From positions 221,348 through 285,347 of the forward strand of contig VXRL01000040.1 of NCBI GenBank assembly GCA_009838515.1: DNA of 64,000 nt, in the 5' to 3' direction. This document shows, piece by piece, positions 1 through 16,150 of the stretch (positions within the stretch are counted from its first letter, which is position 1; each line of letters begins with the position of its first letter). The DNA is from Terriglobia bacterium. Lineage in GTDB: Bacteria > Acidobacteriota > Terriglobia > Bryobacterales > UBA6623. A program made the position numbers and the translations under genes. The notes below the pieces were generated by a model. That model was not told the origin of the DNA, ran no database searches, and saw nothing but the letters and a program-made list of their open reading frames with translations.

Positions 1-2839
1 CAGCGACCCGCATCTGCGCGTCCAAGAATTCCTTGACCGGCTGGGCGTCGGGGGCCGGACCACGGAAATCCCATTCAAACGTGCCCCCATCGCGCGTCTC
101 ATAGCTGCCCTCGAATGTGACGACCTTCTCCGCGTCTGACACGCCGCCTACAGCACTGAGCAGTCGGAAAGCATCGCTGGGCTCGAACATGCGAATCGTT
201 AGGACACTGATCGAGTCGACACCATTGGCTCTCGCCTTTTCCCAAAGTTGCGACAACGCGTCCCTGAGCACTCCCTCGGCGCTCAACTCCGGGGGGGGTG
301 GTGGCGGCGGACCGGGTGGCGGCGGACTGGGCGGCAGCGGACCGGGCGGCGGCGAATCGGGCTGCTCAGGTCGCGGCCAAACGCCGTTCTTCTTGGCATA
401 GGCCATTGTCATGACCAAAGCCTGCTCATCGATGCAGATTTCTACCGACGGCTCACCTGGCCCGAACAGCAGATCACCGCGCTTGTAGACGTAGTCGCCC
501 TGCTGGATCCCGAGCCGGATGCCGCGTATGTAGATGTCGTCCCCCAGCAAAATCGGCAGCTTTGGGTCACGACGAAATTCGTTGCGCAAGGCTCGAGTCG
601 TCATCTCACCCTTCCGTAGCGGTGTTCGGTCTCGAACGTAGTTCGGCGCATCAGGCTCGTCGTCGGGGAAACGAAGCTTCTTCAAGTCGCGTAGCGCTCG
701 CGCTATCTGGCGCTGACCATTTCCCGGCTGAGCCGACGCTGAGGGCATATCGACCGCTGTATGCGCGAGGTCTATACCCTTTGTTCCAAGCCTGTCACGT
801 GAGGGGTAGAAGACGTGGCGGTAGCACTGCTGCACAGCAATCGCTAATTCCTGCTCGGACTTGGCTTCCAGAGCAAGGACCGTCTCCTGTTGATGAGCCG
901 CAAGACTCCTGAGGCGATCGGGGGCCTTGAGCCGCTGGAGCGCCAGACGTACCCTCATGCGGCGCTGCATGGGTTCTTTGGCAGCGTCGTCAGCCGCCAC
1001 TAGTACGAGATGGTTGCGCAAGACTCGCAAGGCAGAACCACCAGCACCCTTGTGCTGGTGCACATCGGCAACCAAACCCGGAACCTCGTCAACCGTCTCG
1101 CCGACGCTCACGCCATCGTATGCGAATACAACCAGTCTTGGACGGCCATCGCCGACGTCATCAGGCACGTCGAACGGACCACCGGGAAAGCGAATTATCT
1201 CGAAGGTCGTTCCCGAAAAGATCTCCGTGATTCGATCATTGAGTTGTGCACGCACCTCGGTCGCATCGACCTGCTTCTCCTCTCGACGAATGATCTGGCT
1301 GAGATTGGCCTCGGCCAGAAAGCGCATTGGCGCCGCCGGCCGGTCATCGAGATAGGCCGACTCGGTTGTGAAGTCCTTACGCGCCTTGTCGATGAAACTC
1401 AGATCGACCCTCGGCCCGGCCGCAGAGTAGCGCAGTTCCTCAGGCGTCAGGCCCTGGAGCTGTTTGTTGAAGGCCAGCGTGTGCATGAAGATAGTTCTTG
1501 CCACATAGGCGGCGTATGGCGGCAGCCCCTTGTGTTTCTCGGCGTCAATCTCCTCAGCGAGAGACCGTTGCCCAGACCGCCCGGCCGCCACGTCGTTGGC
1601 AATGGCCGGCTGGAAAGCGGACTGCCCCAGCCTCGTGATGATCTCTTGGCGGATCGGCTCGTAACTTGGGTCAATGTGATGCACGTGAATCGCCGTCGCG
1701 TCCGCGGGCCGCTGCATCCAGAGGTGTGCGACGGTGCGAGCTAGCAGTCGGAGCATTCCACGGACTCGCTGGAAATTCGACAGTGTGGCGGTCTTGCTCG
1801 TCAATGTTTGGAGCACATCCGGGTGGAGCGGATAGCTCGCGCGAAACACCTCTGCCGCCTCAGTCCGAGCAGCATCACCGCTGAGAACCTCTTGATTGGC
1901 AGCCCAGAGCTTCTGGTAGGAACCTATGGTCGCAGTTGCGGCGGCGTCATCGACCGACTCGAACAAACGCCTCCGGAGAACTTGGACCGTCTCGTCCTCC
2001 TCAGTGGGATTTAGGAGGGTCGCCTTGCGGGCCGAAATCTTCTCGATTTCGGCCATATCGTCTGCGACCATCTGGTTCTCCTCCGAATAGGCGTCAGTGG
2101 CCAAGCCGTCCTTGCCGATGGCGAGCGTGTAGACCAGAGCCGCATTCGGAGCGGTCTCCACGGCCTTGTACAGGGACGTGAGGAAGGCAGTCAGCTGTCC
2201 GCGCGCGTCAGGCATTCTACTGACCTTCCGGAGATAAACCGACAATTCATCAAGCAGGATCAGAGTCGGCTTGCCGGCGAAAAGGGCACGCAGTGTCTCC
2301 GCGCCAGGCGCCGTCCGCTGCTCGTCGCTCTTCCGTACTCGCTCATACCCTGGCTTCCCGGCCAGAGCATGGGCTATCTCACCCCAAGGGGTATATGCCA
2401 GAACCCCGCCGTCCAGCGAGCGGCCGTTCACCGGGTCCGCGTTTTCACCATCGAAGGCCGCTATACGGACGGCACGCGTCGGCAACAGCGACGGTTCGAC
2501 AAATTCCTCTTTGTGCGGTACGCCGTCCATTCCCTTCGCCGCGTGGGACAGCGCAATCAGGCCATGAGTCTTCCCGCCGCCGTATGAAGTGTCGAGCCGA
2601 AAGATGGCCGCCGCCGCGTCTCCGGAACCGCTGAGTCGACAGCAGACGTTAGCGAGCAGGTTCTTTAGGCCCCGAGTTGGGTAGGTGTTGGCGAAGAACG
2701 AAACTGCGTCCCGATAGCCCGCACTCGCCTTGCCAGAAAGCACCAATGCAAGATCGGCCGCGAAGTCTGCGTCGGCGATCGTACCGTCGAGCACATCGGG
2801 GCGAGGACGGCAGGTATCAAAGATTGTCGGAACCGTCAC
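1..2839 (-). CDS. DUF499-family ATPase of a restriction-like/BREX-related system (3'-partial, runs off window)
   Basis: Hand translation of the minus strand from GTG at 2839 gives MTVPTIFDTCRPRPDVLDGTIADADFAADL...FFANTYPTRGL...IFRLDTSYGGGKTHGLIAL (Walker A) and LILLDELSVYLRK (Walker B). The ORF track lists no stop-terminated ORF in this frame, consistent with no stop before the edge (~946 codons). Poly-Pro linker at ~288-357. Confidence 0.88.
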   Translation of the reverse strand, partial: MTVPTIFDTCRPRPDVLDGTIADADFAADLALVLSGKASAGYRDAVSFFANTYPTRGLKNLLANVCCRLSGSGDAAAAIFRLDTSYGGGKTHGLIALSHAAKGMDGVPHKEEFVEPSLLPTRAVRIAAFDGENADPVNGRSLDGGVLAYTPWGEIAHALAGKPGYERVRKSDEQRTAPGAETLRALFAGKPTLILLDELSVYLRKVSRMPDARGQLTAFLTSLYKAVETAPNAALVYTLAIGKDGLATDAYSEENQMVADDMAEIEKISARKATLLNPTEEDETVQVLRRRLFESVDDAAATATIGSYQKLWAANQEVLSGDAARTEAAEVFRASYPLHPDVLQTLTSKTATLSNFQRVRGMLRLLARTVAHLWMQRPADATAIHVHHIDPSYEPIRQEIITRLGQSAFQPAIANDVAAGRSGQRSLAEEIDAEKHKGLPPYAAYVARTIFMHTLAFNKQLQGLTPEELRYSAAGPRVDLSFIDKARKDFTTESAYLDDRPAAPMRFLAEANLSQIIRREEKQVDATEVRAQLNDRITEIFSGTTFEIIRFPGGPFDVPDDVGDGRPRLVVFAYDGVSVGETVDEVPGLVADVHQHKGAGGSALRVLRNHLVLVAADDAAKEPMQRRMRVRLALQRLKAPDRLRSLAAHQQETVLALEAKSEQELAIAVQQCYRHVFYPSRDRLGTKGIDLAHTAVDMPSASAQPGNGQRQIARALRDLKKLRFPDDEPDAPNYVRDRTPLRKGEMTTRALRNEFRRDPKLPILLGDDIYIRGIRLGIQQGDYVYKRGDLLFGPGEPSVEICIDEQALVMTMAYAKKNGVWPRPEQPDSPPPGPLPPSPPPPGPPPPPPPELSAEGVLRDALSQLWEKARANGVDSISVLTIRMFEPSDAFRLLSAVGGVSDAEKVVTFEGSYETRDGGTFEWDFRGPAPDAQPVKEFLDAQMRVA

Positions 2840-2918
2840 ATCAAATCCCTGAGCATACGCATGCGTGGCTTAAGCGAGTAGTATTCGCGGCGAGACGAAC
2901 CGTGTTTGTTCATATGAG

Positions 2919-2940
2919 ACACTTGAAACGAGGCAAGTGT
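2919..2940. promoter_or_regulatory. 7-bp inverted repeat (ACACTTG-N8-CAAGTGT) in the divergent intergenic region; possible operator
   Basis: Perfect inverted repeat between divergently oriented defence genes; function inferred. Confidence 0.3.
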
Positions 2941-3401
2941 AGCGCAACCTGAGATTCTGAATGCATGAACAAGGAGGAGCTACAGGCGGCAAGCGGAGAC
3001 GTTCTGTTCGTGATTCAGGATCGCTTTCAGGCAGGGGGTGGGCTCCGTCGATGGGGTGTTACCGGCAATCGTCGCAGCGTACAGGCGGTACCGGCACGCC
3101 TCTTGATGCTTGGAAGCATCTCCTGTTGCGATTCATTCCCAGCGTCCGAGGTCTGCGGGGCCGCTGCCTGGCCGTGCTACGCCGCGGGCGTCTGACCGCC
3201 CTCTGCGGGGAGGTTTGGCTCCTCGCAAAGGGCGAGCATGACGTTGTGAGCCGAGAGTTGGCGACACACCCGACCACAGAGCCCGCGATGCTTTCAGCAA
3301 GTTTGCCAGTTGGACGCGTCTCCCTGTTCTGCCCCTCCAGCCGAACGACACTAGAGATCTGTAAGCGTCGCATCACGTGAGACGATTCGCACGAGAGGAC
3401 C

Positions 3402-4508
3402 TTGATGTTCGAGAATCTGCGGATTAAGAATTTCCGGCTGTTCGACGATCTAGAAATCGGAGAACTGAAGCGAATCAACCTCCTTGCCGGACGCAACAAT
3501 GCTGGCAAGACAGCCGTTCTTGAGGCCATCTACCTGCTGGCCAGCGTTGGTAACCCAAGACGCGCCATAGAGGTCAAGGGGATTCGCGGGATCAGCGAAA
3601 CATCGGGATCGCCGGGCCGACTACCAACCTCGTATTGGAAGCCACTGTTTTCTCAACTCAACATGCAGCGGTCTATCGAGATCAGTGGTGCGCATTCCCA
3701 TCTCGGCCCCGTGGCGCTAGCCATCTCTCTGGAGCGGCGAGACGATTCCGAGACTCCAGAACCTTACCGCTTCCCAACTTCACAGGTAGCTCAAGGGGTG
3801 GCTGACGACGCACAAGAAGCAGTTTCTCATGACATTGGCGAGCGGCTTGCTGATCCATGGGCGCTACATCTTTCATGGGCGACCAACATGGGGCGAGATA
3901 CATGCGACATGCGCGTGACGGAACACAGTCATCGGATCGTGAGCGCAGACCTTGGTATTCCGCTCCATCCGATCTATCTGTCTTTGGGCCCTGGAAACGC
4001 CCACGAAGACGCAGTCCGCTTGGGTCAGCTTCGGGCGCGCAAGAAAGGGGACCTGTTGACAAAGGCGTTACAGGTTGTCGAACCAAGCTTGGAAAGCGTT
4101 GAAGACATCTCCGCTACCGGCACTCCAATGATCTGGGGCGATATCGGCCTGCCCGAGCTTACTCCACTGTCGGCAATGGGGGAAGGTGTAGCGCGAATCG
4201 CCAGAATCGTGCTTGCGACGTCCAGTGTCCCGGGCGGAGTCGTACTTGTCGACGAGATCGAGAACGGATTTCACCACTCAGTCATGAAGAAGGTGTGGTC
4301 TGTCGTGGAAGAGGCTGCACAACTGTTCGACGCACAAGTAATTGCGACGACTCACAGTTATGAGTGCCTCATGGCAGCTCATGAGGCTCTGAGGGACGAG
4401 TGGCGGTTTCACCGATTGGACCGCACCAAGGAAGGATCGAGTCAATGTGTGACATTCGACACGGAAAGGGTCGAGGCAGCGATCCGGCACTGGTTGGAGG
4501 TTCGTTAA
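3402..4508 (+). CDS. ABC-type/AAA_21 (AbiEii-like) ATPase
   Basis: N-terminal IKNFRLF, Walker A AGRNNAGKT, signature-like MGEG, Walker B VLVDEIENGFHH, H-loop ATTHS. Confidence 0.85.
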   Translation: MMFENLRIKNFRLFDDLEIGELKRINLLAGRNNAGKTAVLEAIYLLASVGNPRRAIEVKGIRGISETSGSPGRLPTSYWKPLFSQLNMQRSIEISGAHSHLGPVALAISLERRDDSETPEPYRFPTSQVAQGVADDAQEAVSHDIGERLADPWALHLSWATNMGRDTCDMRVTEHSHRIVSADLGIPLHPIYLSLGPGNAHEDAVRLGQLRARKKGDLLTKALQVVEPSLESVEDISATGTPMIWGDIGLPELTPLSAMGEGVARIARIVLATSSVPGGVVLVDEIENGFHHSVMKKVWSVVEEAAQLFDAQVIATTHSYECLMAAHEALRDEWRFHRLDRTKEGSSQCVTFDTERVEAAIRHWLEVR

Positions 4509-4511
4509 CTT

Positions 4512-5135
4512 GTGGGACGGCCGCCGGAACGTATCGGATCCAATGTACAGCTCCTTGTCGAGGGGCGTGATGCAGTGGGCTTCTTCGAAGCATTGATCCA
4601 AGATCTGGCGCTAGAGGAAGTACAGATCCAAGACTTCGGCGGCGTGGCAGAGCTGCGGACATTCTTGCCGGTATTCGTCGGTAGTTCGGGGTTCTCCCGC
4701 GTCACAAGCCTCGGGATCGTTCGCGATGCAGAGACCTCCGCTGGAGGGGCGTTTGAGAGTGTCCAAGGGTCTCTAGCTGGCGCTGGGCTCCCGGTTCCGC
4801 AAGCCCCTGGACAGCGAGTCGGCGACCGTCCGGCTGTCACAGCAATGATCCTACCCGGGGGGAACCGGACCGGCATGCTCGAGACACTGCTGAACGAAAC
4901 GCTCTGTGGTGACAATGTGCTGACTTGCATCGATGACTTCTTCCGCTGCGTCGAAGAACACTGCGGCGAGCCGACACACAGGCCGGAGAAGGCTCGTTCC
5001 CACGCTTACCTAGCAACCAAGCGGGACCCGCATCTGTCGGTCGGCTTTGCCGCCAAGCGAGGATATTGGAACCTCAAACACCAAGCGCTGGAGCCGCTAC
5101 GCACGTTCCTTCGGGAGGTCGCTTCTCAGCACTGA
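4512..5135 (+). CDS. TOPRIM-like putative nuclease partner of the ATPase (DUF3226-like)
   Basis: LLVEGRD and GIVRDAE acidic motifs typical of TOPRIM folds; starts 3 nt after the ATPase stop. Confidence 0.7.
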   Translation: MGRPPERIGSNVQLLVEGRDAVGFFEALIQDLALEEVQIQDFGGVAELRTFLPVFVGSSGFSRVTSLGIVRDAETSAGGAFESVQGSLAGAGLPVPQAPGQRVGDRPAVTAMILPGGNRTGMLETLLNETLCGDNVLTCIDDFFRCVEEHCGEPTHRPEKARSHAYLATKRDPHLSVGFAAKRGYWNLKHQALEPLRTFLREVASQH

Positions 5136-5160
5136 GAGATCCCACGAAGATTCTGATCCT

Positions 5161-8139
5161 ATGTCCGACACCCGCCTGATTGAGCGCTGGCTCCCGATCG
5201 CTGAGATCGGCGTCGAGAGCACTCGAGAGCGTACGCCCATGACTCCGTTTCCGGCACCGAACCGCCTTCATGTTTGGTGGGCGCGCCGACCACTAGTGGC
5301 GTCACGAGCGGCAGTACTCGCGTCCCTGCTGCCAGCAAATGCCGACCGGGAAAAGTTTCTGCATGTCCTTGGGATTCACGGTGATCCAATCGCTACGCGA
5401 CAAAAGATTGATGCGGCCCGCCGACGAGGTGAACGCTTCGAGGGACAAGCCTACAGCTATCCCCGGGCGTTCAGCTACATACCTCGGGAGGACGACCATC
5501 GGTGGTTGCAGGAAACTCTGGGCACCAACGGACTCTCATCCTCTTCAGTTCTCGATCCGACTGCCGGTGGCGGGAGCATTCCATTCGAAGCGGTACGGCT
5601 CGGCACTCGAGCCGTGGCCAACGATCTTAATCCTGTCTCTGCACTTATCATGCGGGCGACGGTTTTGTGGCCCTCCCTATATGGAACAGCTCTTGAATCG
5701 GCATACCGTGAACTGTCGGATCAGTTCGTGCCGGCGCGAGAAGAACGTCTCGCTTCGTACTTCCCCCCTGAGCCGGAGCGGAACTGTATCTCAACCAATC
5801 ACCTCTGGGCACGGACGATTGTATGCCCGTACTGCGACGGTCTCGTACCGCTGTCGCCGAATTGGCGGCTTGCTCCGGACGGCACTGGCGTCAAGCTTTG
5901 TCCCGATTGCACCAATGGCCCGGGAACACCCGGCCGCGTCTGCACATTTGAGATTGTTCAACAGGCAGAGCAACAGTCACCGGGCACAGTCGCGCGCGGC
6001 AAGGGCCAGTGCCCGTGGCCCGACTGTGGCCGAATCATCGACGGAGACGAAATCAAGTCCCAAGCCAAAGCGCGAGGGATGGGCGAACAACTGTTCGCCG
6101 TCGTGTATAAGCGGAGGATCGAAACCAAGACTAAGTCGGGCAAGCGTGGTCGCGACAAGTGGGTGCGCGGCTACCGCGCACCTAGAGCTGAGGATGACAA
6201 TAGCGCCGACATCGACGCCAAGCTGGCAGAAAAGCTGGCGGAGTGGCAAGCGCTGGACTTCGCGCCGAGCGAGCGGATTCCCGACGGCACCAAGACAACC
6301 GAGCCGCACCGTTATGGCATGGCCCTCTGGCGCGACTTGTTCTCGCCGCGGCAACTGCTGTGCCACGGCACCAGCGTAGAGGTGTTCAGGGAAATGCTTG
6401 AGGCGGACCGGGACGCCGGACGACTTGACGACATTCGGCAGGCTGCCTACGGGTACTTGGCTTTCTCGCTGGATACGATGTTGAACTACAACTCGCGCAT
6501 GTCGGTCTGGATGCGCACCCGCGAGGTTGTCGCGAATACATTCAACCGGCACGATCTTGCCTTCTGCTGGTCATACGCCGAGATGGCCCCACTGGTCGTC
6601 GGAATCGGCTACGACTGGACTATCAAGCAGACCGCAAAGTGCATCAAGGAACTCGTCGCGCTGGTTCATCCGAGCACCGAAACTAATGCCGCTCCGCTAT
6701 TCGACCAAGTTGCTCCGAAGAAGTCCGAAGGGACCCATTCGCCGTTGCCTCCCGTTTCGATCACGTGCAAATCGGCAGACAGCCTTGACCACCTCTCTGA
6801 TGGCAGCATCGACGCTGTGGTGGTAGACCCGCCGTACTACGACAATGTCATGTACGCGGAGTTGTCGGACTTCTTCTATGTCTGGCTCAAGCGCACGGCA
6901 GGACATGTCTTCCCCGACCTGTTCCGTCGCCAGCTGACCGACAAGGAGAACGAGGCGGTGGCCAATCCGGCAAAGTTCTCTGGCGAGAAGGGTGCCAGTG
7001 CTCTCGCTGGACGGGACTATCAGGATCGCATGGCTGCGATCTTCTCCGAATGCCGACGTGTGCTGAAACCGAGCGGCATTATGACGCTGATGTTTACGCA
7101 CAAGGCGACCGGTGCCTGGGACGCACTGACCACAGGCCTGATGGAGGCCGGTTTCGCGATCACGGCATCGTGGCCTATCAACACCGAGGCAGGCGGAAGC
7201 CTGCACATCCGGGACAAGGCGGCGGCCAACAGCACTGTGTTTCTCGCCTGCCGCCCTCGTTCGCAGAATGAAATGTCTAGCGGATCGAATGGGAATGACG
7301 AGTTCCGTTACTGGGAAGATGTGGAGCCACTCGTGGCCGGTGCAGTAGCGAAGCGTGTCGGCGAGTTCCAGGAAGCAGGCATCGGCGGAGTCGACCTATT
7401 CTTGGCAGCTTTTGGCCCGGCACTAGAGGAGTTCTCTCGCCACTGGCCTCTCAGGCGGGGAACGCCACGGGATCGGCCGGAATCGCGCAGCCGACAGCGC
7501 AAGCTCCACCTAGACGAATGGGACCCATACTCCGTGACACCAGAAGACGCGCTCGATGTCGCCCGACGCGAGGTCAAGCGATGGCGACTGGAGCGGTTGG
7601 CGGCCCTGAAGGCAGACGCGGACCTTGACAATGTGACCTCGTTTTTCGTTCTGGCATGGGACACGTTTCGGGCCCCGGTCTTCCCGTACGACGAGGCTCT
7701 GCGGCTGGCACGAGCGGTTGGGGTTGATCTTGATCGAGAGATAGTGGGTCGACTTGCCAACAAACGCAGCAGCGACCTGATGATCTGGGACAGCGCACAC
7801 CGTGCGGCAACCGGCACTCTCGGACCAGCCGATGGATCACGGGGTATGATCGACACACTTCACCATGCGGCTCATATAGCGCGGTCAAGGTCCTTGGCAG
7901 TCGCCCGCGAGATACTCGAACACAACGGAGTGGGTCACGAACCTCGGTTTCTTGCGGCACTCAAGGCGATACTTGAAGTACTACCGATGTCACCAGCCAT
8001 CACGGGGGTACGGCTCGGCACCGATGCGGCAGCTGCTGGCGACGACTTCGAGGCCCTCTATGGGTTGTCCCGCCTCGCCTACCACGACAACATCGGCGAA
8101 CCGGAACAACTTAAGCTCTGGCGTAGCGCCGCCGAATGA
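5161..8139 (+). CDS. DUF1156-family N6-adenine DNA methyltransferase with Zn-ribbon insert
   Basis: LHVWWARRPL N-terminal motif, SAM-binding DPTAGGGSIPFEA, catalytic DPPYYDN, and CPYC/CPWPDC cysteines. Start placed at ATG 5161 (MSDTRLIERWLP). Confidence 0.9.
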   Translation: MSDTRLIERWLPIAEIGVESTRERTPMTPFPAPNRLHVWWARRPLVASRAAVLASLLPANADREKFLHVLGIHGDPIATRQKIDAARRRGERFEGQAYSYPRAFSYIPREDDHRWLQETLGTNGLSSSSVLDPTAGGGSIPFEAVRLGTRAVANDLNPVSALIMRATVLWPSLYGTALESAYRELSDQFVPAREERLASYFPPEPERNCISTNHLWARTIVCPYCDGLVPLSPNWRLAPDGTGVKLCPDCTNGPGTPGRVCTFEIVQQAEQQSPGTVARGKGQCPWPDCGRIIDGDEIKSQAKARGMGEQLFAVVYKRRIETKTKSGKRGRDKWVRGYRAPRAEDDNSADIDAKLAEKLAEWQALDFAPSERIPDGTKTTEPHRYGMALWRDLFSPRQLLCHGTSVEVFREMLEADRDAGRLDDIRQAAYGYLAFSLDTMLNYNSRMSVWMRTREVVANTFNRHDLAFCWSYAEMAPLVVGIGYDWTIKQTAKCIKELVALVHPSTETNAAPLFDQVAPKKSEGTHSPLPPVSITCKSADSLDHLSDGSIDAVVVDPPYYDNVMYAELSDFFYVWLKRTAGHVFPDLFRRQLTDKENEAVANPAKFSGEKGASALAGRDYQDRMAAIFSECRRVLKPSGIMTLMFTHKATGAWDALTTGLMEAGFAITASWPINTEAGGSLHIRDKAAANSTVFLACRPRSQNEMSSGSNGNDEFRYWEDVEPLVAGAVAKRVGEFQEAGIGGVDLFLAAFGPALEEFSRHWPLRRGTPRDRPESRSRQRKLHLDEWDPYSVTPEDALDVARREVKRWRLERLAALKADADLDNVTSFFVLAWDTFRAPVFPYDEALRLARAVGVDLDREIVGRLANKRSSDLMIWDSAHRAATGTLGPADGSRGMIDTLHHAAHIARSRSLAVAREILEHNGVGHEPRFLAALKAILEVLPMSPAITGVRLGTDAAAAGDDFEALYGLSRLAYHDNIGEPEQLKLWRSAAE

Positions 8140-8907
8140 CGATTCCGCGGATCGGCCGAGATCCTATTGATCATATCGGCATAACTCTGGCCTGTTGACC
8201 GGCAGCTGGATTTCTGCGGACACCAATTGCATACCATCATTGTTTGGACCGATGCCGGTGAGAGTCACTCATGCCCATGCCCGAGACTCAAGATCAGTCC
8301 ACGAACTGCAAGTCAAGAGCCCTCGGACGTTCAGGGCAAGGCGCATGCAACTGGGAGATTGTGGCTCGGGTAGTCGTCGACGAAGGCTCCGACGCGCCAG
8401 TTGGATCGAATTGGTTTCGGTATGACCTCATTGCATCACCAAATCCACTCGAACAACTCAACCCCGCCGTCGAGAGCACGACCAAGGCCGGCGCCCGGTC
8501 ACACTGTCACGACACTGTTCGAGGAGAACTTCCACTTGCGCCCCGGAAGCGTCTGCTCGACCCGGCAGGTCAAGATGTGGCTCGATTCGTGTGAAACGCT
8601 CTTCGCTCCACCCAGCAGCTCACCAGCGAGAATCAGCTATGCAATCCCTCAACTGTCAAGCGTGCTCAGGCAATCACACGCTGACGGCTTGCGGCACACG
8701 ATGCGGGACGAAACCCGACGCCGTGCCAACGGGTGCGAAGCTCTGGGTGCCGATGTCTTCAGCGCCACGGCGGCTGAACCTGTATGTAGCCCCGACTTTG
8801 GCTTGCACCGACGGTCAGATCAAGGCAATCGCGCTCGTTGGCGGAATGCAGATCCTAAGGTGCAACCTCAAAGATGACCAAGCCTCGAGTGTTCAACGTT
8901 TGAGCTT

Positions 8908-11900
8908 TTGGAGTTGACCGGCGTGCTCAGGGATCGGACGTGGCAACTCAAGTACACACCGGAGGACGGCGATCTCATTCGTGTCTTCTATGTCCCGGCA
9001 CTCGAGGACGCCAAGCGGTATGACCGACTGACCGGATACTTCAGTGCGGGCGCGTTGGCGCTTGCCGCAAGAGGAATCGAGGGACTGGTTCACAACAAAG
9101 GAAAAATGCGCCTCGTCGTCGGCTGCACCCTCAAGGAAGCCGAAATCGACGCTATCCAGCGGGGCGAGGAATTACGCACCCAAGTTGAACGGCGCTTGAC
9201 CGCACTGCCACTGACCCCGCCGAACACCGACGCCGCAAACGCTCTGGAGTTGCTGGCTTGGATGATCGGACGCAGCCATCTCGACGTGAAGGTCGCTGTT
9301 CCCTGCGACGAGAAACGGCTGCCTGTAAACGATCCGGCGATCTTTCACGAGAAGTCAGGTGTCATCGAGGATCGAATTGGAAACAAGCTCGCCTGGACCG
9401 GCAGCCTTAACGAAACCGAAGCTGGTTGGCAGTCCAACTGGGAGAGTATCAATGTCTTTACCAGCTGGGGCCGAGAACCGAAGAGAGTATCCACTGAAGA
9501 GCGGAACTTCGAGCGTCTGTGGTCCGATACGTCGCCCCGTGCCCTCGTTCTGGACGTGCCGGACGCTGTCAAGCAAGACCTGCTTCGGTTCTTGCCGCGC
9601 GAGGGCCTCCCAACACGGCTGAAGAACGAGCCAAAGAAACCGGAGCCGCCATCACCGCCATTAACAGAACGACAGCGACTGATCTGGACGTTCATTAAGC
9701 GTGCACCATCGCTTCCAAACGGCGGGTCCCGCACGGGTGAAGCCACCGCGGCTGTCACGCCTTGGCCGCACCAAGTTCGGGCATTCGAGCGCCTCTACCA
9801 ACACTGGCCTCCTAGGTTGCTGATCGCGGACGAAGTGGGACTGGGCAAGACAATTCAGGCAGGACTGTTGCTGCGCCAAGCGTGGCTTGCCAGCCTAGCC
9901 AAGCGGATTCTCATTCTCGCTCCTAAAGCCGTCCTGAAGCAGTGGCAGATCGAGCTACGCGAGAAATTCAACCTCAATTGGCCAATCTACGACGGACGTG
10001 CGCTTCGCCGTTACGAGACGCACTCAGTGGGCGGACAGGCCAAGCACGAATCCCCAACAAGACTCTGGCATGAAGAACCAGTGGTAATCGCATCCAGCCA
10101 ACTCATGCGGCGCGCAGACCGCTTCACGACGCTTGTTGAAGACGCTGAGCCGTGGGATCTGATCATCCTAGACGAGGCCCATCATGCCCGCCGAAGCGCC
10201 GCTGGCAGTTCCAAGCAAGGCGGTCCGAATGCCTTGCTCAAGCTCATGCGATCCCTGAAGTCCCGCACCCAAGGGCTGGTCCTGCTGACAGCGACCCCGA
10301 TGCAGGTGCATCCTGTCGAGGTGTGGGACCTTCTGGACCTGCTGGGGCTTCCTCCTGAGTGGGCTGCGCCCGCTTTCCTGGACTTCTTCGAGCTGGTCAA
10401 CAGACCCAAACCGTCTGGAGACGCGTTAGAGCGTATGGCACGAATGTTCCAAGCCGTTGAAAGGGATTTGGGTCCTGCATCCCGCGAGTCTGTTCAGAGA
10501 CTGACGGGACTGTCTCGGTTGAAAGCCGGGAGGTTGCTCAGTGCGCTGCGTGACGGAGCGAGCATTCCTCGTCGCCAGCTCGATCCAGCTGGGCGTAGTG
10601 CGGCAATTGCAGTAATGAGGGCGCATTCTCCGATTCGGTGGCTGATCTCGCGCCATACCCGTGAGCTGCTGCGCCGCTACGCCAAGCAAGGGGTCTTGGC
10701 GACCGCCATTGCGAGGCGCCAAGTTGACGACCTCTTCGTCGAAATGAGTGACGCAGAGTTCGAACTCTACGAGGCCGTCGACGAGTACATCTCGAATACC
10801 TACAACCGAGCAGCCAGTGCCGAGAGGTCAGCAGTTGGCTTCGTGATGACGGTCTATCGTCGCCGTCTTGCAAGCAGCTTCGCCGCCCTACGCGCCACCC
10901 TGGAGAAGCGCCGCGATGCCAGATTGCACGATGCGGTCATGTCGGCGGAGGACTCGGAAGAAGACATGGCGGACGACGAGGCACTCGACGACGTGCTAGA
11001 CGAAGAAGAAGTGGCAGCCATCGCGTCCCAAGCGCTTGCCTTCGAGGAGTTAGGCGAGATCGAAAGACTGCTGGAATCGATCCAATCGCTGCCGCCCGAC
11101 AGCAAGCTCGATTGGCTCAACAAGACCTTGGACGAACTGGCAATACAGGGGTACGGCCAAGTCATGGTGTTTACCCAATACACCGCCACAATGGACTTTC
11201 TGCGCGAAGCGCTTCGCTCGCGGAGCGATCTGCGCCTGATGTGCTTCTCTGGCCGCGGCGGTGAGATTCCCTCAGGTGGGGTCCAGACTGCGTGGCTTCG
11301 GATCGACCGAGAGCAAGTCAAGCGCCGGTTTAGGGACGGCCAAGCCGATGTGCTGCTTTGCACCGACGCCGCTTCGGAAGGACTGAATTTCCAATTTTGC
11401 GGAGCGCTCGTCAACTACGACATGCCGTGGAATCCGATGCGAGTTGAGCAGCGGATTGGACGCATCGACCGAGTTGGTCAACACCATGAGTCCGTGCGAG
11501 TGGTAAACCTCCACTACAAGAACACCGTCGAGACGGACGTTTATCGGGCACTACGCAATCGCATCGGCCTCTTCGAGCAGGTCGTCGGCCGTTTACAGCC
11601 AATCCTCGCAAGAATGCCGAAGGCCGTCGCGGATGCTGTGCTGGCCGGACGGAAGTCTGCTGATGCGCGAAACGTCGCCGACCGAATCCAAGAACAAGTC
11701 GCCGAAGAGGAGCGCGGTGGATTCGATATCGAGACTGCCCTCGATTCCGAGACCGCAATGCCGGACCGGCCACCGTCGCCAATCACAATGGATGACCTCG
11801 ACCGGGTGATCCGTGAGCCCGACCTGATGCCTCCGGGAGTGCAGGTGCAACCGATGGGGCCGCGAGAGTACAGCCTGCTCGCTCCAGGAATGAAGGAGCC

Positions 11901-12054
11901 TATTCGGATAACGACAGATCCGGAGTACTACGAGGAAAACTCCGAGAGTGTTGAGTTGTGGTCGCCAGGCAACCCGTTCTTCAAGGGGCCCGAACCAACT
12001 CAAGGCCTGGATGTTCCAGCCGGCACGACTCTGAAGGACTTACTCGAAACGTAG
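8908..12054 (+). CDS. PLD-nuclease domain + SNF2-family helicase
   Basis: N-terminal TGYFS..., FHEKSGVIED (HxK motif) and TGSLNET; helicase motifs LIADEVGLGKT, DEAHH, LLTATP, EGLNFQ and PWNPMRVEQRIGRIDR. Confidence 0.9.
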   Translation: MELTGVLRDRTWQLKYTPEDGDLIRVFYVPALEDAKRYDRLTGYFSAGALALAARGIEGLVHNKGKMRLVVGCTLKEAEIDAIQRGEELRTQVERRLTALPLTPPNTDAANALELLAWMIGRSHLDVKVAVPCDEKRLPVNDPAIFHEKSGVIEDRIGNKLAWTGSLNETEAGWQSNWESINVFTSWGREPKRVSTEERNFERLWSDTSPRALVLDVPDAVKQDLLRFLPREGLPTRLKNEPKKPEPPSPPLTERQRLIWTFIKRAPSLPNGGSRTGEATAAVTPWPHQVRAFERLYQHWPPRLLIADEVGLGKTIQAGLLLRQAWLASLAKRILILAPKAVLKQWQIELREKFNLNWPIYDGRALRRYETHSVGGQAKHESPTRLWHEEPVVIASSQLMRRADRFTTLVEDAEPWDLIILDEAHHARRSAAGSSKQGGPNALLKLMRSLKSRTQGLVLLTATPMQVHPVEVWDLLDLLGLPPEWAAPAFLDFFELVNRPKPSGDALERMARMFQAVERDLGPASRESVQRLTGLSRLKAGRLLSALRDGASIPRRQLDPAGRSAAIAVMRAHSPIRWLISRHTRELLRRYAKQGVLATAIARRQVDDLFVEMSDAEFELYEAVDEYISNTYNRAASAERSAVGFVMTVYRRRLASSFAALRATLEKRRDARLHDAVMSAEDSEEDMADDEALDDVLDEEEVAAIASQALAFEELGEIERLLESIQSLPPDSKLDWLNKTLDELAIQGYGQVMVFTQYTATMDFLREALRSRSDLRLMCFSGRGGEIPSGGVQTAWLRIDREQVKRRFRDGQADVLLCTDAASEGLNFQFCGALVNYDMPWNPMRVEQRIGRIDRVGQHHESVRVVNLHYKNTVETDVYRALRNRIGLFEQVVGRLQPILARMPKAVADAVLAGRKSADARNVADRIQEQVAEEERGGFDIETALDSETAMPDRPPSPITMDDLDRVIREPDLMPPGVQVQPMGPREYSLLAPGMKEPIRITTDPEYYEENSESVELWSPGNPFFKGPEPTQGLDVPAGTTLKDLLET

Positions 12055-12540
12055 GGCTCCTGGCCACGTTTGACCACCAGAGGCAGCCAAGCCTCCGATG
12101 ACTCCGAGGATCTAGCGATTCGGAGGGGTAAATCCGAAGTGCACTGCGGCGCTAGTCGAGTCGCGTGGGGACTGCTGCGCTCACCTTCTTGGCCGCTCCC
12201 AGTGCGCTAACGTGCGGTGTCAAAGCCCGCTCGAGGGTGTTCTAAGCGATTTGCCGATTGAAGTCGGGAGAGAGAGTTCGGGTCGCTCCACGGTGAACCT
12301 AGATTCGAATTGACCGTAGGGGGGATGCCCTTCATTACCACAGGGGCCGCGCTCCACGGTGAGAGTTGTAACGCACACACCTTGCAACGCACATCGGACC
12401 TACGAGGCACACAGCATGCGAACGCCATTGGCTGCAACTCGTCTCATTCCACTAGAACTTTGGCGACGCTGGCGCTGCCCAGCCGGCCCAATGAAGGTGT
12501 GTCATGATTGCTATGCTGGATTCCTCGGTTCGACGATGTA

Positions 12541-13056
12541 ATGGCCCTGATGGATCTTGGCGGCTGGATTGAGCGCGTCTACGAAGAAGAGGATTTCGGA
12601 CGGAACATCGCCATTGCTGCCGCAGGGGCCGCAGGACTGGGCGCGTACCTCCTTCAGGGAGATTGGGTAGTAGCTGCGTTCGTTGCCGTGATCGTCTTCT
12701 CGATTGTCAAGGTCGCGGCCTCTTCGTGGCATTCGGATCGGAAGCAGTCCCGAGAACGCAGCGATCACACGGACCGGATGAACCGGCTGTTCGAAGATCT
12801 CAGCCCGAGGGAACAGGCTGTAGTGCGGGCATTTGTTTCGCATGGAGGCTGTGTTGTCAGTTGGGCGAATGCCACTCCCTCGAAGGGCTTTGATAGCACT
12901 GGGATAGACTCACTGATCAAGCGCAGGCTGATCTATTCGTCCATTTCAGTCGATGGGATCAGAGACACGTTTGAGCTGGATGCTGAACTGTTCGACTACG
13001 CACAAGCGCTCGTGGCCGAAGACCTCCCAGAAGACACCGACGACATACCGTTCTAG
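12541..13056 (+). CDS. Two-TM membrane protein with a cytoplasmic winged-helix-like domain and C-terminal DDIPF (SieB-like architecture)
   Basis: Two hydrophobic segments, then LSPREQAVVRAF; ends EDTDDIPF-stop. Start uncertain (12508/12541/12550). Confidence 0.6.
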   Translation: MALMDLGGWIERVYEEEDFGRNIAIAAAGAAGLGAYLLQGDWVVAAFVAVIVFSIVKVAASSWHSDRKQSRERSDHTDRMNRLFEDLSPREQAVVRAFVSHGGCVVSWANATPSKGFDSTGIDSLIKRRLIYSSISVDGIRDTFELDAELFDYAQALVAEDLPEDTDDIPF

Positions 13057-13370
13057 CTGGCGTCATCGTCCTTTTCGAAATTGAAGGTCACGCGCTGCGT
13101 GTTCAGGCTTAGCAGTGCTCCGACGAGCGCGATATAGACCTCCGCCTCTGCAAGTCGCTGCTTGGTGTTGTTGTTGGGCTGGGCCTTGGCGGCCAGCTCG
13201 TCCCGCTTGTTGGTCAGCCCGTCCATGGCCACCTCCAGCGCGTCGGCGTCTCCGGGACGTTCGCTCGCCCATGTGGCCAGCTCCCGGGGGGTCGCTTCAT
13301 CGATGCTCTTGGTCACTCGACGCGTGAAGCTCACGGTCAGTGTGTTGGTTTTTTGGCTGGTCGTTGACAT
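13053..13370 (-). CDS. Hypothetical ~105-aa protein
   Basis: AAGGAG ribosome-binding site upstream, AT-rich promoter region, GC3-rich codons; 4-nt convergent overlap with the previous gene. Confidence 0.65.
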   Translation of the reverse strand: MSTTSQKTNTLTVSFTRRVTKSIDEATPRELATWASERPGDADALEVAMDGLTNKRDELAAKAQPNNNTKQRLAEAEVYIALVGALLSLNTQRVTFNFEKDDDAS

Positions 13371-13379
13371 GGTCAATAC

Positions 13380-13540
13380 ACTCCTTAGAACTATTCTATA
13401 TGAAATTTCAATAATATGCCAAGAGATTGGTGCAAGAAAATTTCCATGTGATGACAGCGAAGTGTAAACACTCCACCAATAATTGATTAAATCTTATTAA
13501 ATCAATTATTTACGGAATATCTAGGGTCTCTATATTTGAC
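13380..13540. promoter_or_regulatory. AT-rich regulatory tract with a 10-bp inverted repeat and an IHF-consensus match
   Basis: AATAATTGAT(13478)-N13-ATCAATTATT(13510); AATCAATTATTTA at 13500-13512 matches WATCAANNNNTTR; further palindromes TGAAATTTCA (13401) and AGTGTAAACACT (13461). Confidence 0.5.
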
Positions 13541-13912
13541 CAATATCGACATCGCTGAGCTATGGGTGTAGTGGGGGCCTCCGTTGATGATGCAGAATCC
13601 CCGCCCTGCTAGCTCAAACTCGGCGGTCATGATATCGCCGGCCTTACCCATTCCGGCTTCGCTGTAGCGAGTGATCCGGGTGACGCGGGAGTCTACAAAG
13701 CACGACGTGTAGACTTATGGGGCTTCCCCGACCAAACCATCGAACCACAGATTGGTGACGATATTCTGCATGCCTCAATCTCTACCGTTTAGGGCGAACT
13801 CGTCGGTAGAGGGACCGACGATCGAGCGTCGGCCATCTGACCTGCGGTTACCAGCGCGTCTTCGCAAGCCCAACCCTTGGGGGACGGCGATTCCCCGTTC
13901 ACGAATCGAACT

Positions 13913-14389
13913 TCACAGTTTGTCGAAGCCACGCCAGCCGGGCAAGGCGGCCGCCTGCCGGACCCATGTTGCCATCTGCTCCTCGTCAAGTTCGCCTTCG
14001 TAGATGTCGGCCCAGCGGGCGTCCCTGTCTTTGCCCGAGCCGGGTGGGACGGGACGAAGGGCCGCTCCGTTCAAGAAAGTCACTTTCACGTAGCGGGTGA
14101 ACACGTGATAGCTGAGAAACCACCCTTCGCCCTCGACGCCATACCATGGCGAGTTCCACCTCACCGCCTTGCGCACGTTGGGCACAGTGCGCAGGATGAG
14201 ATCGTCAAGGCGGCGCCCAACATCGCTTTTCCAACCCGGCATGGCGGAAATGTATGCCTGCACTGGGGCGTCGCCGTCGGCCTTCGCGATCTGAGGATTG
14301 CCACCCGAAAGCAGGACCACCTCTCCGCCAGAGTTTTCGGTGGTCTTCGTGGAGGCCCTGGCCGACCTCTCGGACGTTTGACCGGCCAT
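13913..14389 (-). CDS. DUF1801 (YdhG-like) domain protein
   Basis: LLSGGNPQIAKADGDAPVQAYI...VRKAVRWNSPWYG...VKVTFLNGAAL pattern; GGAGAG upstream of ATG 14389. Confidence 0.8.
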   Translation of the reverse strand: MAGQTSERSARASTKTTENSGGEVVLLSGGNPQIAKADGDAPVQAYISAMPGWKSDVGRRLDDLILRTVPNVRKAVRWNSPWYGVEGEGWFLSYHVFTRYVKVTFLNGAALRPVPPGSGKDRDARWADIYEGELDEEQMATWVRQAAALPGWRGFDKL

Positions 14390-14556
14390 TGATTTCACTC
14401 TCTCCGTAGCGGACCTCAGAGGACAAAATGCCAGACTCTTCAGCGGTAGAGCCAACCGAGAGTAGTCGTTGCACCGACGCCCGACTAACGCAAACAAGCC
14501 TTTGGCCAATCGGAATCGCAGGCCCGAACCTCGGCTGTAAGGTGCGTTACACGACG

Positions 14557-14643
14557 CTAGAGCCCTTCCGCTCTTGAGCTGAGTGCCTGGTATTGTAGAC
14601 GACCGCCTCTCGCAGCGATCACCGCGCTCGAATCAGCCGCGAT
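14557..14643 (-). pseudogene. Truncated VapC/PIN toxin remnant (N-terminus only)
   Basis: A frame overlapping the antitoxin end reads IAADSSAVIA (PIN first beta-strand with Asp), then diverges and stops after 28 codons; no start codon. Confidence 0.5.
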
Positions 14644-14839
14644 CTTCCCGAAGCCGGTCCAGATCGACCGAGAATTCTACGTTGCCGCGGAGTTCTCTGA
14701 GCGTTTGGTGCGCAGTCCGGGCTGCCACCATGCGCAATCCCTCGCGCACGGTCGCCGCGACGCCTTGGCCGGTTGCCTCTTGAGCCTTCGCCAAGAGGTC
14801 GGCGGGCACATTTACCGTGATCTTCTGTCGCGCTTCCAC
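14633..14839 (-). CDS. VapB-like RHH antitoxin
   Basis: KITVNVPADLLAKAQEATG...TVREGL...LRELRGNVEFSVDLDRLREDR is typical of VapB32-like antitoxins. Confidence 0.75.
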   Translation of the reverse strand: MEARQKITVNVPADLLAKAQEATGQGVAATVREGLRMVAARTAHQTLRELRGNVEFSVDLDRLREDRG

Positions 14840-15007
14840 TGCCGCCCTCGCACCGTAGCACAGGCTGTAAACCGATCCGGAAACTCGAACCGGCCTATCT
14901 TGCCGGCACGTCGTGCCAGCTTGGTGGCGAGTGACCCGTCCAATGCACGTCGCCGCCCCGACAGGGCTAAAGGCTGCTGGCCTCCAGCGCTGCGGTCGAA
15001 TGCGAAC

Positions 15008-16150
15008 TCAGACGATCTGAACCAGACTTGCGATCAACGCAGCCCGATCGGCAATGCGGTCCACCAAGATGCTCTCGTGAAGCGCGTGGGCCCCTTCTCC
15101 CACGGCTCCGAGCCCGTCAAGCGTCGGTATGCCCATCGCGGCGGTCGTGTTGCCATCGGAGCCGCCGCCAACCGATGCTTCGCCCAAGCCAACGCCCAAC
15201 TGAGAGGAGATCGCCTTGGCGCACTCATACAGCCGAACGACGTCCGCGGTTCGCTCCAGCGGCGGCTTCCTGACACCACCGGAGACAATGACGGTGCAGC
15301 GTGGATCCACGGGGGCGAGCGATCCGAACCGCTCTTCGAGTCGAGCACCCTGCTCGCGCGTGGAAAACCGCACGTCGAATTCCGCCCAGGCGTGTTCGGC
15401 CACCACGTTCGACGCCGATCCTCCGCGCGCCAGTCCGGGATTGACTGTCATGCCCTGTTCTAGGTCCGTCCATGACGACGCCGCCTGAATCTGGCGGGTG
15501 AGTTCTAGAATCGCGCTAGCCCCGGCGGCGAAATCCAATCCGGCGTGAGTGGCCACACCCTCGACCGACACCTTGAACGTTGCCCCGCCCTTACGCGACG
15601 TCTTCAGGTTGCCCTCCAGTCCGGCACTCGGCTCGGCCACAAGCACGGCCGCACTTTGCGCGGCCTCCTTGCGTACTTGCGAGGTGGAAGACGGGCTTCC
15701 GATCTCCTCGTCGGAGTTCAGCTGCACCACGAAGCGCCGGCGGGCCTCCAAGCCAAGCTCGCGAAGCGCGCGCGCCGCGAAGATCAAGTACGCCACGCCC
15801 GCCTTCATGTCGAACACTCCCGGACCCCACAAACGTCCGTCTGCCTGCTTCCAAGGCATGCGCTGCAGCGTCCCAACATTCCAGACGGTGTCGATATGCC
15901 CTAGGCCGAGCACTTGGCCGTCCGCCTTGCTGGGAGTGTCGAACTCGATCCGCAGGTGGTCTCCGTGCTCGGACTGTTCCAAGCGGGTGACTCTCGCAAT
16001 GTCCTCAGCCGCATCCGCCACGGCAGTGCCCATTCGGTCGACCGCCGCCTTGTCGCAAGTCGGGGATTCGATCTCCACAAAGGTTCGGATCAAGGCGATG
16101 ATCTCGCCCTCGCGCTCGCGCATGTAGCTGAGGATCGTTCGGCTGTCCAC
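15008..16150 (-). CDS. M20 family metallopeptidase (glutamate carboxypeptidase-like)
   Basis: GHIDTV, GPGVFDMKAG, SDEEIGS, EP, GGGSDGN and GAH metal-binding motifs. Confidence 0.9.
   Translation of the reverse strand: MDSRTILSYMREREGEIIALIRTFVEIESPTCDKAAVDRMGTAVADAAEDIARVTRLEQSEHGDHLRIEFDTPSKADGQVLGLGHIDTVWNVGTLQRMPWKQADGRLWGPGVFDMKAGVAYLIFAARALRELGLEARRRFVVQLNSDEEIGSPSSTSQVRKEAAQSAAVLVAEPSAGLEGNLKTSRKGGATFKVSVEGVATHAGLDFAAGASAILELTRQIQAASSWTDLEQGMTVNPGLARGGSASNVVAEHAWAEFDVRFSTREQGARLEERFGSLAPVDPRCTVIVSGGVRKPPLERTADVVRLYECAKAISSQLGVGLGEASVGGGSDGNTTAAMGIPTLDGLGAVGEGAHALHESILVDRIADRAALIASLVQIV

Follow-up and report, generated by a model that had tools for sequence, protein, structure and literature searches.

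The 64,000-nucleotide stretch of the Terriglobia bacterium contig VXRL01000040.1 analysed here (the window, G000:C23:221348-285347, G000 being the source genome of 5.84 Mb and 63.6% G+C) probably carries, at its left end and just beyond it, a four-gene, restriction-modification-like anti-phage system of the bacteriophage exclusion (BREX)-related (BR) group. In this reading the system consists of two modules in a Type-2 BR architecture, with the small protein DUF7680 standing where DUF3780 stands in the published systems. Module 1 would comprise a DUF499 AAA+ ATPase and DUF7680, and module 2 a DUF1156 methyltransferase and an SNF2 motor with an N-terminal PLD/HKD nuclease. Module 1 is inverted relative to module 2, and a gene pair of the AbiL/PARIS class is most probably lodged as cargo at the junction between the modules. 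The ancestral order would have been ATPase, small alpha+beta protein, methyltransferase and HKD-helicase, as in published Type-2 BR systems.

Core genes of the system

All genes that an earlier sequence-only reading of the window had named were recovered in their places as open reading frames (ORFs) with Pfam and PADLOC matches (Table 1), and its view of the locus as a DUF499/DUF1156/nuclease-SNF2 restriction-like, BREX-related system is borne out by the family matches. Annotation with PADLOC and other profile hidden Markov models (HMMs) gave matches to HmaC, HmaB, BrxHI, PLD_Helicase, AbiLi and PDC-M38, and extension of the contig to the left uncovered the rest of the DUF499 gene, the DUF7680 gene and further defence genes.

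The ATPase matches the PADLOC models HmaC (1.5e-93, 312.7 bits) and DUF499 (5.2e-43), features a GGGKT P-loop near residues 86-90 as well as LILLDE at 193, and is the DUF499 AAA+ ATPase expected of a Type-2 BR system. The 3' part of its gene holds three tandem copies of a 15-nt unit at window positions 299-346 (18-nt matches, TGGTGGCGGCGGACCGGG-like), which fall in a proline-rich stretch that varies among the aligned relatives. For the methyltransferase, the PADLOC matches are HmaB (4.3e-69) and DUF1156_MTase (3e-44), with DPTAGGG at 132 and DPPY at 556, and the start assigned in Table 1 is supported by tblastn, whose alignments to relatives set in at residue 1. Family and DPPY motif place it among the DUF1156-type N6 methyltransferases of Type-2 BR systems, the N6 base specificity being a prediction. 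The helicase-nuclease matches BrxHI (2e-78), PbeA (1.9e-72, N-terminal, residues 7-429) and PLD_Helicase (1.2e-70) and carries HEKSGVIED at 147, GSLN at 165, GLGKT at 311, DEAH at 422 and QRIGRIDR at 848. Its HxK...GSxN signature at 147-168 lies ahead of the SNF2 motifs, which is the N-terminal HKD plus SNF2 arrangement of Type-2 BR helicases, and the protein is presumed to be the restriction effector.

Relation to known BREX-related systems

According to the main text of Rakesh and Krishnan (NAR 2026, PMC12839542), DUF499-centred BR systems are divided into Types 1-3. Type 1 is Hma, with a helicase bearing a C-terminal PD-(D/E)XK nuclease, Type 2 combines a helicase bearing an N-terminal HKD nuclease with a standalone DUF3780 in 98% of taxa, and Type 3 contains PglZ and an inactive STAND protein. 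Our system shares with Type 2 the DUF499 ATPase, the DUF1156 methyltransferase, the HKD/PLD domain at the N-terminus of the SNF2 helicase and, immediately following the ATPase gene, a standalone gene for a small alpha+beta protein; both have the same ancestral gene order, and the ATPases group, as long branches, in the quick tree described below. It differs in having DUF7680 instead of DUF3780 and an inverted ATPase module, and its core proteins are only distantly related to those of Type 2: three DUF3780 loci of the same phylum, all ordered DUF499, DUF3780, methyltransferase and PLD-helicase, encode proteins about 25-30% identical to ours, and on the PADLOC models DUF499/DUF1156_MTase/PLD_Helicase the window proteins reach 145/149/237 bits, whereas a true DUF3780-type locus reaches 1361/1371/1313.

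The top PADLOC matches of the ATPase and the methyltransferase are HmaC and HmaB, as would be expected of an ordinary Hma (Type-1 BR) system, with which the locus also has in common the triad of ATPase, methyltransferase and SNF2 helicase and the insertion of other defence genes. We nevertheless consider this explanation hardly credible, as the scores on HmaC/HmaB/HmaA (312/231/206 bits) lie far below those of a true Hma locus from the same phylum (1183/1532/1702), and HmaA is matched only across the helicase core, from position 333 to 655 of a model of 1176. HmaA ends in a PD-(D/E)XK (NOV_C) nickase domain, whereas the nuclease found here is an N-terminal PLD domain. Hma loci moreover start with the helicase gene, followed by those for the methyltransferase and the ATPase, and have no small fourth gene, and the tree sets our ATPase apart from the Hma clade. 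Among 20 other DUF499 loci that were fetched, tblastn found a helicase in 13, all of which are ordered helicase, methyltransferase, ATPase and match the window helicase only in the SNF2 core. HmaC-like ATPases as such are found in 79 of 401 sampled genomes of Acidobacteriota, a tally that includes one weak partial match (G024).

Type-3 BREX, which comprises BrxC, PglXI, BrxHII, PglZ and others, has homologous classes of ATPase, methyltransferase and helicase (PMC12839542), and besides BrxHI the window proteins match the PADLOC models PglXI (1.2e-20) and BrxC (1.3e-4). It differs from our locus by its further components, as no PglZ, BrxA, BrxB or BrxL was found among the ORFs scanned in window positions 1-16150 and the 19 kb to the left.

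The tree, a quick IQ-TREE search, comprises 39 ATPases, namely 17 DUF7680-linked, one distant DUF7680-like, three DUF3780-linked and 18 from the 20 other DUF499 loci (L145 and L149 left out). The DUF7680-linked ATPases form one clade with a Shimodaira-Hasegawa-like approximate likelihood ratio (SH-aLRT) support of 100, and this clade joins the DUF3780-linked ATPases against all others with a support of 97. A second tree of 28 rows, from which the longest branch was left out, gives 98 for this join. Gene architecture and tree both point to a Type-2-like system, one without the defining DUF3780.

DUF7680 in the place of DUF3780

The sequence-only reading had seen no DUF3780 in the window, which holds true for the entire source genome (0 matches to PF12635), so that the standalone DUF3780 of Type 2 is not among its genes; its position, however, is filled by the DUF7680 gene just outside the window, whose start overlaps the DUF499 stop by one base in the ORFs as called. 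A single-protein scan for DUF7680 with one genome per species gave 160 relatives, of which the best 80 loci (68-81% identity) were kept. They originate from Vicinamibacterales, Bryobacterales, Thermoanaerobaculia, Latescibacterota, Alpha- and Gammaproteobacteria, Binatia, Spirochaetia and others. In 77 of these 80 loci the gene immediately preceding DUF7680 is DUF499, which is full length in 73; of the three exceptions, two lie at the end of a contig and the third carries an insertion of 2.8 kb. Across several phyla, DUF7680 is at 68-81% identity at least as conserved as DUF499 (58-78%, full-length matches). Several genomes harbour multiple DUF499-DUF7680 loci (L033/L039/L052, L055/L056, L084/L092 and L036/L037), and one Vicinamibacterales contig holds three.

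The DUF7680 family counts 2965 clusters at 90% identity (E <= 0.001) and 423 representatives at 50% identity, compared to 3878 clusters at 90% identity for DUF3780 in the same kind of search, and the sole name borne by seven DUF7680 clusters that were looked up is 'hypothetical protein'. Among the 401 genomes of the phylum survey, DUF7680 occurs in 7 and DUF3780 in 5 (4 above cut-off). As a fourth component DUF7680 was not found in the literature searched: nothing was returned under this name, and the term does not appear in the main text of PMC12839542, whose supplementary data may already list such loci. The embedding of defence cargo, in contrast, is already published.

The AlphaFold 2 model of DUF7680 (predicted local distance difference test score, pLDDT, of 87.7) begins with three strands and a long helix, after which come a fourth strand and finally four helices. 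Its count of four strands and five helices equals that of DUF3780, described in PMC12839542 as a four-stranded sheet backed by five helices, and a DUF3780 model of low confidence (pLDDT 60.7) displays strands, a long helix and a C-terminal helical bundle that are broadly colinear with DUF7680. DUF7680 therefore holds the place of DUF3780 and may, judging from these models, have a fold in common with it, while homology is not demonstrated by profile comparison. Foldseek and VIA-align returned no convincing fold relative of DUF7680 from the PDB, and a sequence search of solved structures gave 0 matches. A complex prediction for DUF499 residues 400-995 with DUF7680 returned no answer (score 0.00) and speaks neither for nor against binding.

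Two further candidates were discarded. The likeness between the motifs EEAAYWLGMAM and EERWWLFGMTAM, seen by eye in comparing DUF7680 with DUF3780, is without statistical support, because hhalign assigns the two families a probability of only 0.5%. The 27 longer proteins containing DUF7680, four of them with DUF499 domains, mostly have the appearance of neighbouring genes merged in gene calling and were not counted as fusions; an apparent DUF499-DUF7680 fusion in G073 consists of two overlapping frames.

Divergent layout

The sequence-only reading had described the ATPase gene as transcribed divergently, which is correct, and had regarded the locus as a divergent variant. The variant is real, but it seems to go back to a single inversion that one clade has inherited. 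By layout, 42 of the 80 related loci are co-oriented in the order DUF499, DUF7680, slot, methyltransferase and PLD-helicase, and 10 are divergent like the window, eight from Vicinamibacterales and two from Bryobacterales; these 52 loci are referred to as classifiable. The five divergent-layout ATPases contained in the tree form one clade (SH-aLRT 100), which fits a single inversion of the ATPase-DUF7680 module. Searches of the region between the divergently transcribed genes brought up no credible ORF, no Rfam match and no sigma-70-like consensus in the promoter scan.

A mis-assembly of the divergent layout is unlikely, because the layout recurs in 10 of the 52 classifiable loci and identical contigs are present in metagenomes. 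Sponge-metagenome contigs from four runs of one study show zero differences from window positions 1-13500, and one contig from a possible source sample spans positions 1-5985. In run X2 of this study, positions 2766-2808 are bridged by no single contig. Three later studies share small portions of the sequence words of positions 1-13500.

Strength of the assignment

Several observations weigh against the assignment to a Type-2-like system with DUF7680 as its fourth component. The ATPase and the methyltransferase score higher on the Hma models (312 and 231 bits) than on the DUF3780-type models (145 and 149), and the PLDc_2 match of the helicase-nuclease (6.2e-6, 26.5 bits) is just below the Pfam cut-off of 27. 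The trees derive from a quick search with SH-aLRT support only, and the two groups that join are long branches. In 28 of the 80 related loci the methyltransferase is not within 10 kb, seven of these loci being shorter than 14 kb. No sequence relationship between DUF7680 and DUF3780 was detected, the hhalign comparison giving a probability of 0.5% and a separate search no DUF3780 match at E up to 10. The fourth strand precedes the long helix in the DUF3780 model and follows it in DUF7680, and since the strand order differs and the DUF3780 model is poor, a claim of the same fold draws on element counts and colinearity, not on superposition. Finally, every step of the mechanism proposed at the end of this text is derived from sequence families.

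Cargo at the module junction

A two-gene module of an ATPase and a nuclease-like protein had been noted in front of the methyltransferase gene, and it is indeed present. Its ATPase, AbiLi-like and of the OLD/ABC type, matches PDC-M38A (1.1e-49) and AbiLi (3.1e-49) in PADLOC over its full length, with residues 2-368 on AbiLi model positions 1-340, and carries a Walker A motif GRNNAGKT at 30 and a Walker B motif VVLVDE at 280. The second protein, of the DUF3226 family, matches PDC-M38B (1.3e-7), and AbiLii models gave no match to it at E up to 0.01. With PDC-M38A and PDC-M38B adjacent and 3 nt apart, the pair has the composition of the PDC-M38 system, PDC systems having candidate status in PADLOC. 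The literature search returned nothing under 'DUF3226' or 'PDC-M38'.

The description of the second protein as TOPRIM-like has indirect support only, from its residues E17, D72, E124 and E129, invariant in four pair-linked homologues, from the conserved VEG glutamate and D-A-(E/D/N) motif, and from a weak hhalign match (E 0.01, probability 4%) to an OLD protein of a relative, where it covers the OLD-like TOPRIM region. OLD-like_TOPRIM occurs in 10% of the members of one Atlas neighbour cluster, and a sequence search of solved structures gave 0 matches. A TOPRIM fold is suggested by the conserved acidic residues together with these weak matches.

AbiL has been described as a PARIS-class system that pairs an ABC ATPase with a TOPRIM/OLD nuclease (PMC13064643). 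The window pair resembles AbiL of Lactococcus and PARIS as a two-gene operon in which an AbiLi-like ABC ATPase is followed by an approximately 200-aa protein with a TOPRIM-like acidic motif, and it differs from AbiL in that this second protein is DUF3226/PDC-M38B, lacking an AbiLii match. OLD-type ABC ATPases with TOPRIM or other nucleases are reported to adjoin or lie inside BREX/BR loci in at least 1242 taxa (PMC12839542).

Immediately upstream of the methyltransferase gene, the AAA_21 plus DUF3226 pair is also found in three of the relatives, so that the two modules do co-occur beyond the window: in L049 (61% identity for the ATPase and 65% for DUF3226), L073 (48% and 48%) and L093 (26% and 25%), the last being a co-oriented alphaproteobacterial locus with a distant pair. 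The system ATPases of G000, L049 and L073 form a sub-clade (SH-aLRT 97), and judging from tree and identities the pair was probably gained once in this sub-clade and independently in L093. As the pair stays in the same place within one ATPase clade, it has accompanied the cassette, diverging meanwhile to 48-65% identity. This persistence, the presence of a distant pair at the same position in L093 and the location of the pair at the head of the methyltransferase operon, where the gaps measure 3 nt and 25 nt, are what one would expect if the pair were an obligate integrated layer of the restriction system, forming one composite machine with it, and PMC12839542 argues that OLD-ABC modules are back-up effectors. 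We still judge such an integrated layer unlikely, since 49 of the 52 classifiable loci do without the pair (44 with a slot of at least 300 bp hold other ORFs or cargo, and five have slots below 300 bp) and since AbiL and PARIS-class pairs function alone in other hosts (PMC13064643). Exchangeable cargo remains the preferred explanation. The nested pair, in which the sequence-only reading saw a possible layer of defence, belongs to a wide range of modules that alternate as cargo in a variable slot.

This main slot extends from DUF7680, or from the ATPase start in divergent loci, to the methyltransferase start and measures between 42 bp and 8.7 kb. Its contents were assessed by scanning 138 of 161 slot ORFs from 47 loci with Pfam (23 ORFs below 116 aa were dropped) and a subset with PADLOC. 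Cargo includes Septu PtuA/PtuB (L061) and similar ATPase pairs (L074, L085, L103, L109), Menshen NsnABC (L088), a DUF3696 ATPase (L059), TIR plus SLOG (L060, L099), STAND-TPR proteins (L050, L078, L112), M78 plus DUF4411 (L063, L081), GmrSD_N (L067, L088, L099, L112), a PIN protein (L034) and transposases (L049, L103). Based on these annotations, the module junction is a variable slot for alternative defence cargo, a phenomenon already published for Hma and BR systems (PMC11232893, PMC12839542); in hma regions, the inserted modules comprise Septu, PARIS, an AAA_21 system and GmrSD (PMC11232893). A protein of metallo-beta-lactamase (MBL) fold of about 360-380 aa is encoded directly before the methyltransferase in 11 of the 42 co-oriented loci (L045, L060, L065, L067, L069, L076, L078, L081, L084, L089 and L099). 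Its gene is usually preceded by two unannotated genes for about 230 and 200 aa, and PADLOC gave weak LmuA and RTasMBL matches only.

A second, smaller slot lies between the methyltransferase and helicase genes, whose tblastn matches are 3-35 bp apart in 23 of the 32 co-oriented loci with both genes. In five divergent relatives the gap amounts to 783-792 bp and encodes a FitA-like ribbon-helix-helix (RHH) antitoxin (1.1e-14) and a PIN toxin (1e-14); other loci feature Phd/ParE-like or unannotated pairs at this site, and in G325 a fused OLD ATPase-TOPRIM gene is located here, outside the main slot. The PIN proteins encoded in the same spacer of the relatives match the window in two frames (E 8.8e-8 to 1e-5), no antitoxin is detectable in this spacer and the ORF at 8591-8917 is without a Pfam match. 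Such a reduction of a toxin-antitoxin pair kept by relatives to a frameshifted PIN fragment would suit a cluster that is as a whole a decaying, non-functional remnant in a defence island, as would the broken methyltransferase beside a transposase in G073. We regard this as very unlikely, as all five large ORFs of the window are full length compared to relatives at 58-78% identity and retain their catalytic motifs. The G073 locus (L016, 12384-13542 and 18572-19985), with its methyltransferase in pieces, a DDE transposase nearby and no helicase found, is a decayed copy of the cassette.

Genomic surroundings

The gene for a protein with two hydrophobic segments, which the sequence-only reading took for a membrane accessory of the system, did not prove to be conserved. 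Its SieB match in Pfam (2.1e-4, 21.3 bits) is below the cut-off of 26, and tblastn with this query found no match in any of the 80 related loci, nor in those five genomes of divergent layout that are nearest. We treat it, based on these searches, as an island neighbour and not as a conserved part of the system.

On the left, the contig continues with genes for an M78-peptidase-like protein, a TIR-domain protein and GmrSD (Table 1), beyond which sulfatase and sugar-metabolism genes follow; on the right, DUF1801 and M20 peptidase genes follow from 13.9 kb onwards. Judged by this gene content, the system is part of a defence island that measures roughly 21 kb. The first 14 kb of the window have a G+C content of 57-61%. 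An A+T-rich near-palindrome at window positions 13465-13523, with 28-nt arms that are 75% complementary and 3 nt apart, adjoins promoter-like matches near the right edge of the low-G+C island. Rfam, promoter, terminator and repeat scans of window positions 1-15000 gave nothing usable.

Table 1. Features of the locus. Positions refer to the window unless a contig or the left-hand locus L001 (G000:C23:205001-224300) is named.
Feature	Position	Strand	Remarks
GmrSD type IV restriction gene	L001 8960-11302		left of window
207-aa ORF and TIR-domain gene	L001 11342-12680		207-aa ORF upstream of TIR gene; left of window
241-aa ORF	L001, between TIR gene and M78-peptidase-like gene		left of window
M78-peptidase-like gene	L001 14461-15558		downstream of DUF7680; Pfam 1.6e-4, below cut-off; PADLOC RT_III-A C-terminal region 1.2e-16
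DUF7680 gene, 162 aa	G000:C23:220711-221199	-	148-636 bases left of window base 1; Pfam DUF7680 5.2e-43
DUF499 AAA+ (ORC/Cdc6-like) ATPase	2-2839, cut by window edge; whole gene G000:C23:221199-224186	-	995 aa; extends 148 bases further left; Pfam DUF499 2.2e-36
Divergent intergenic region, 562 bp	2840-3401		between ATPase gene and cargo/methyltransferase operon
AbiLi-like OLD/ABC-type ATPase (AAA_21/AAA_15), 368 aa	3402-4508	+	first cargo gene; Pfam AAA_21 7.2e-19, AAA_15 8e-18
DUF3226 protein, 207 aa, putative TOPRIM-like nuclease	4512-5135	+	starts 3 nt after ATPase stop; Pfam DUF3226 2.1e-24
DUF1156 DNA methyltransferase, ~992 aa	5161-8139	+	ORF open from 5047, likely start ATG 5161; Pfam DUF1156 9.9e-17
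Frameshifted remnant of PIN (VapC-like) toxin gene, C-terminal part	~8566-8914	+	inside 768-bp methyltransferase-helicase spacer
PLD/HKD nuclease fused to SNF2 helicase, 1048 aa	8908-12054	+	Pfam SNF2-rel_dom 4.5e-22, Helicase_C 5.8e-19
Protein with two hydrophobic segments (SieB-like, sub-threshold)	12508-13056	+	neighbouring gene; segments at residues 33-49 and 53-71

Proposed mechanism and implications

A mechanism can be proposed from the protein families, taking as models the published interpretation of BR systems (PMC12839542) and HmaA, which is reported to protect alone against T4, Hma having been tested in Halomonas meridiana (PMC11232893). The methyltransferase would mark a motif in the host DNA as self. 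The ORC/Cdc6-like ATPase, together with DUF7680, would recognise unmarked or invading DNA, assemble the complex and license the helicase-nuclease, upon which the HKD-SNF2 protein would translocate on the unmodified DNA and cleave it. The cargo pair may act as an autonomous or back-up abortive-infection module, in which, as in PARIS, the sensor ATPase of the AbiL-like pair would hold the nuclease in check until infection.

Beyond the single locus, it is possible, though we place this somewhat short of an even chance, that the DUF7680-linked cassettes constitute a distinct, widespread and undescribed BR subtype. In such a subtype DUF7680, 68-81% identical across Acidobacteriota, Latescibacterota, Proteobacteria, Binatia and Spirochaetia and with no recognisable structural relative, would replace DUF3780 as the partner of the ATPase, the boundary between the sensor module and the modification-restriction module would serve as a dedicated docking site for interchangeable defence modules, and the second, smaller site before the helicase gene would collect toxin-antitoxin pairs.

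BR and Hma systems were classified only between 2021 and 2026, and only one of their components, HmaA, has been tested. What is of interest here are the two insertion sites and DUF7680 as a putative, undescribed fourth component. Should DUF7680 prove to be a genuine fourth subunit, a family of roughly the size of DUF3780 would have gone unnoticed. Current defence-annotation HMMs match the DUF7680 systems only weakly, and these would therefore be under-called, above all in uncultured bacteria such as those associated with sponges. Both conserved insertion sites offer a concrete place to seek new defence genes, such as the recurrent MBL-fold gene trio, and would allow tests of embedded modules as back-ups against anti-restriction proteins.

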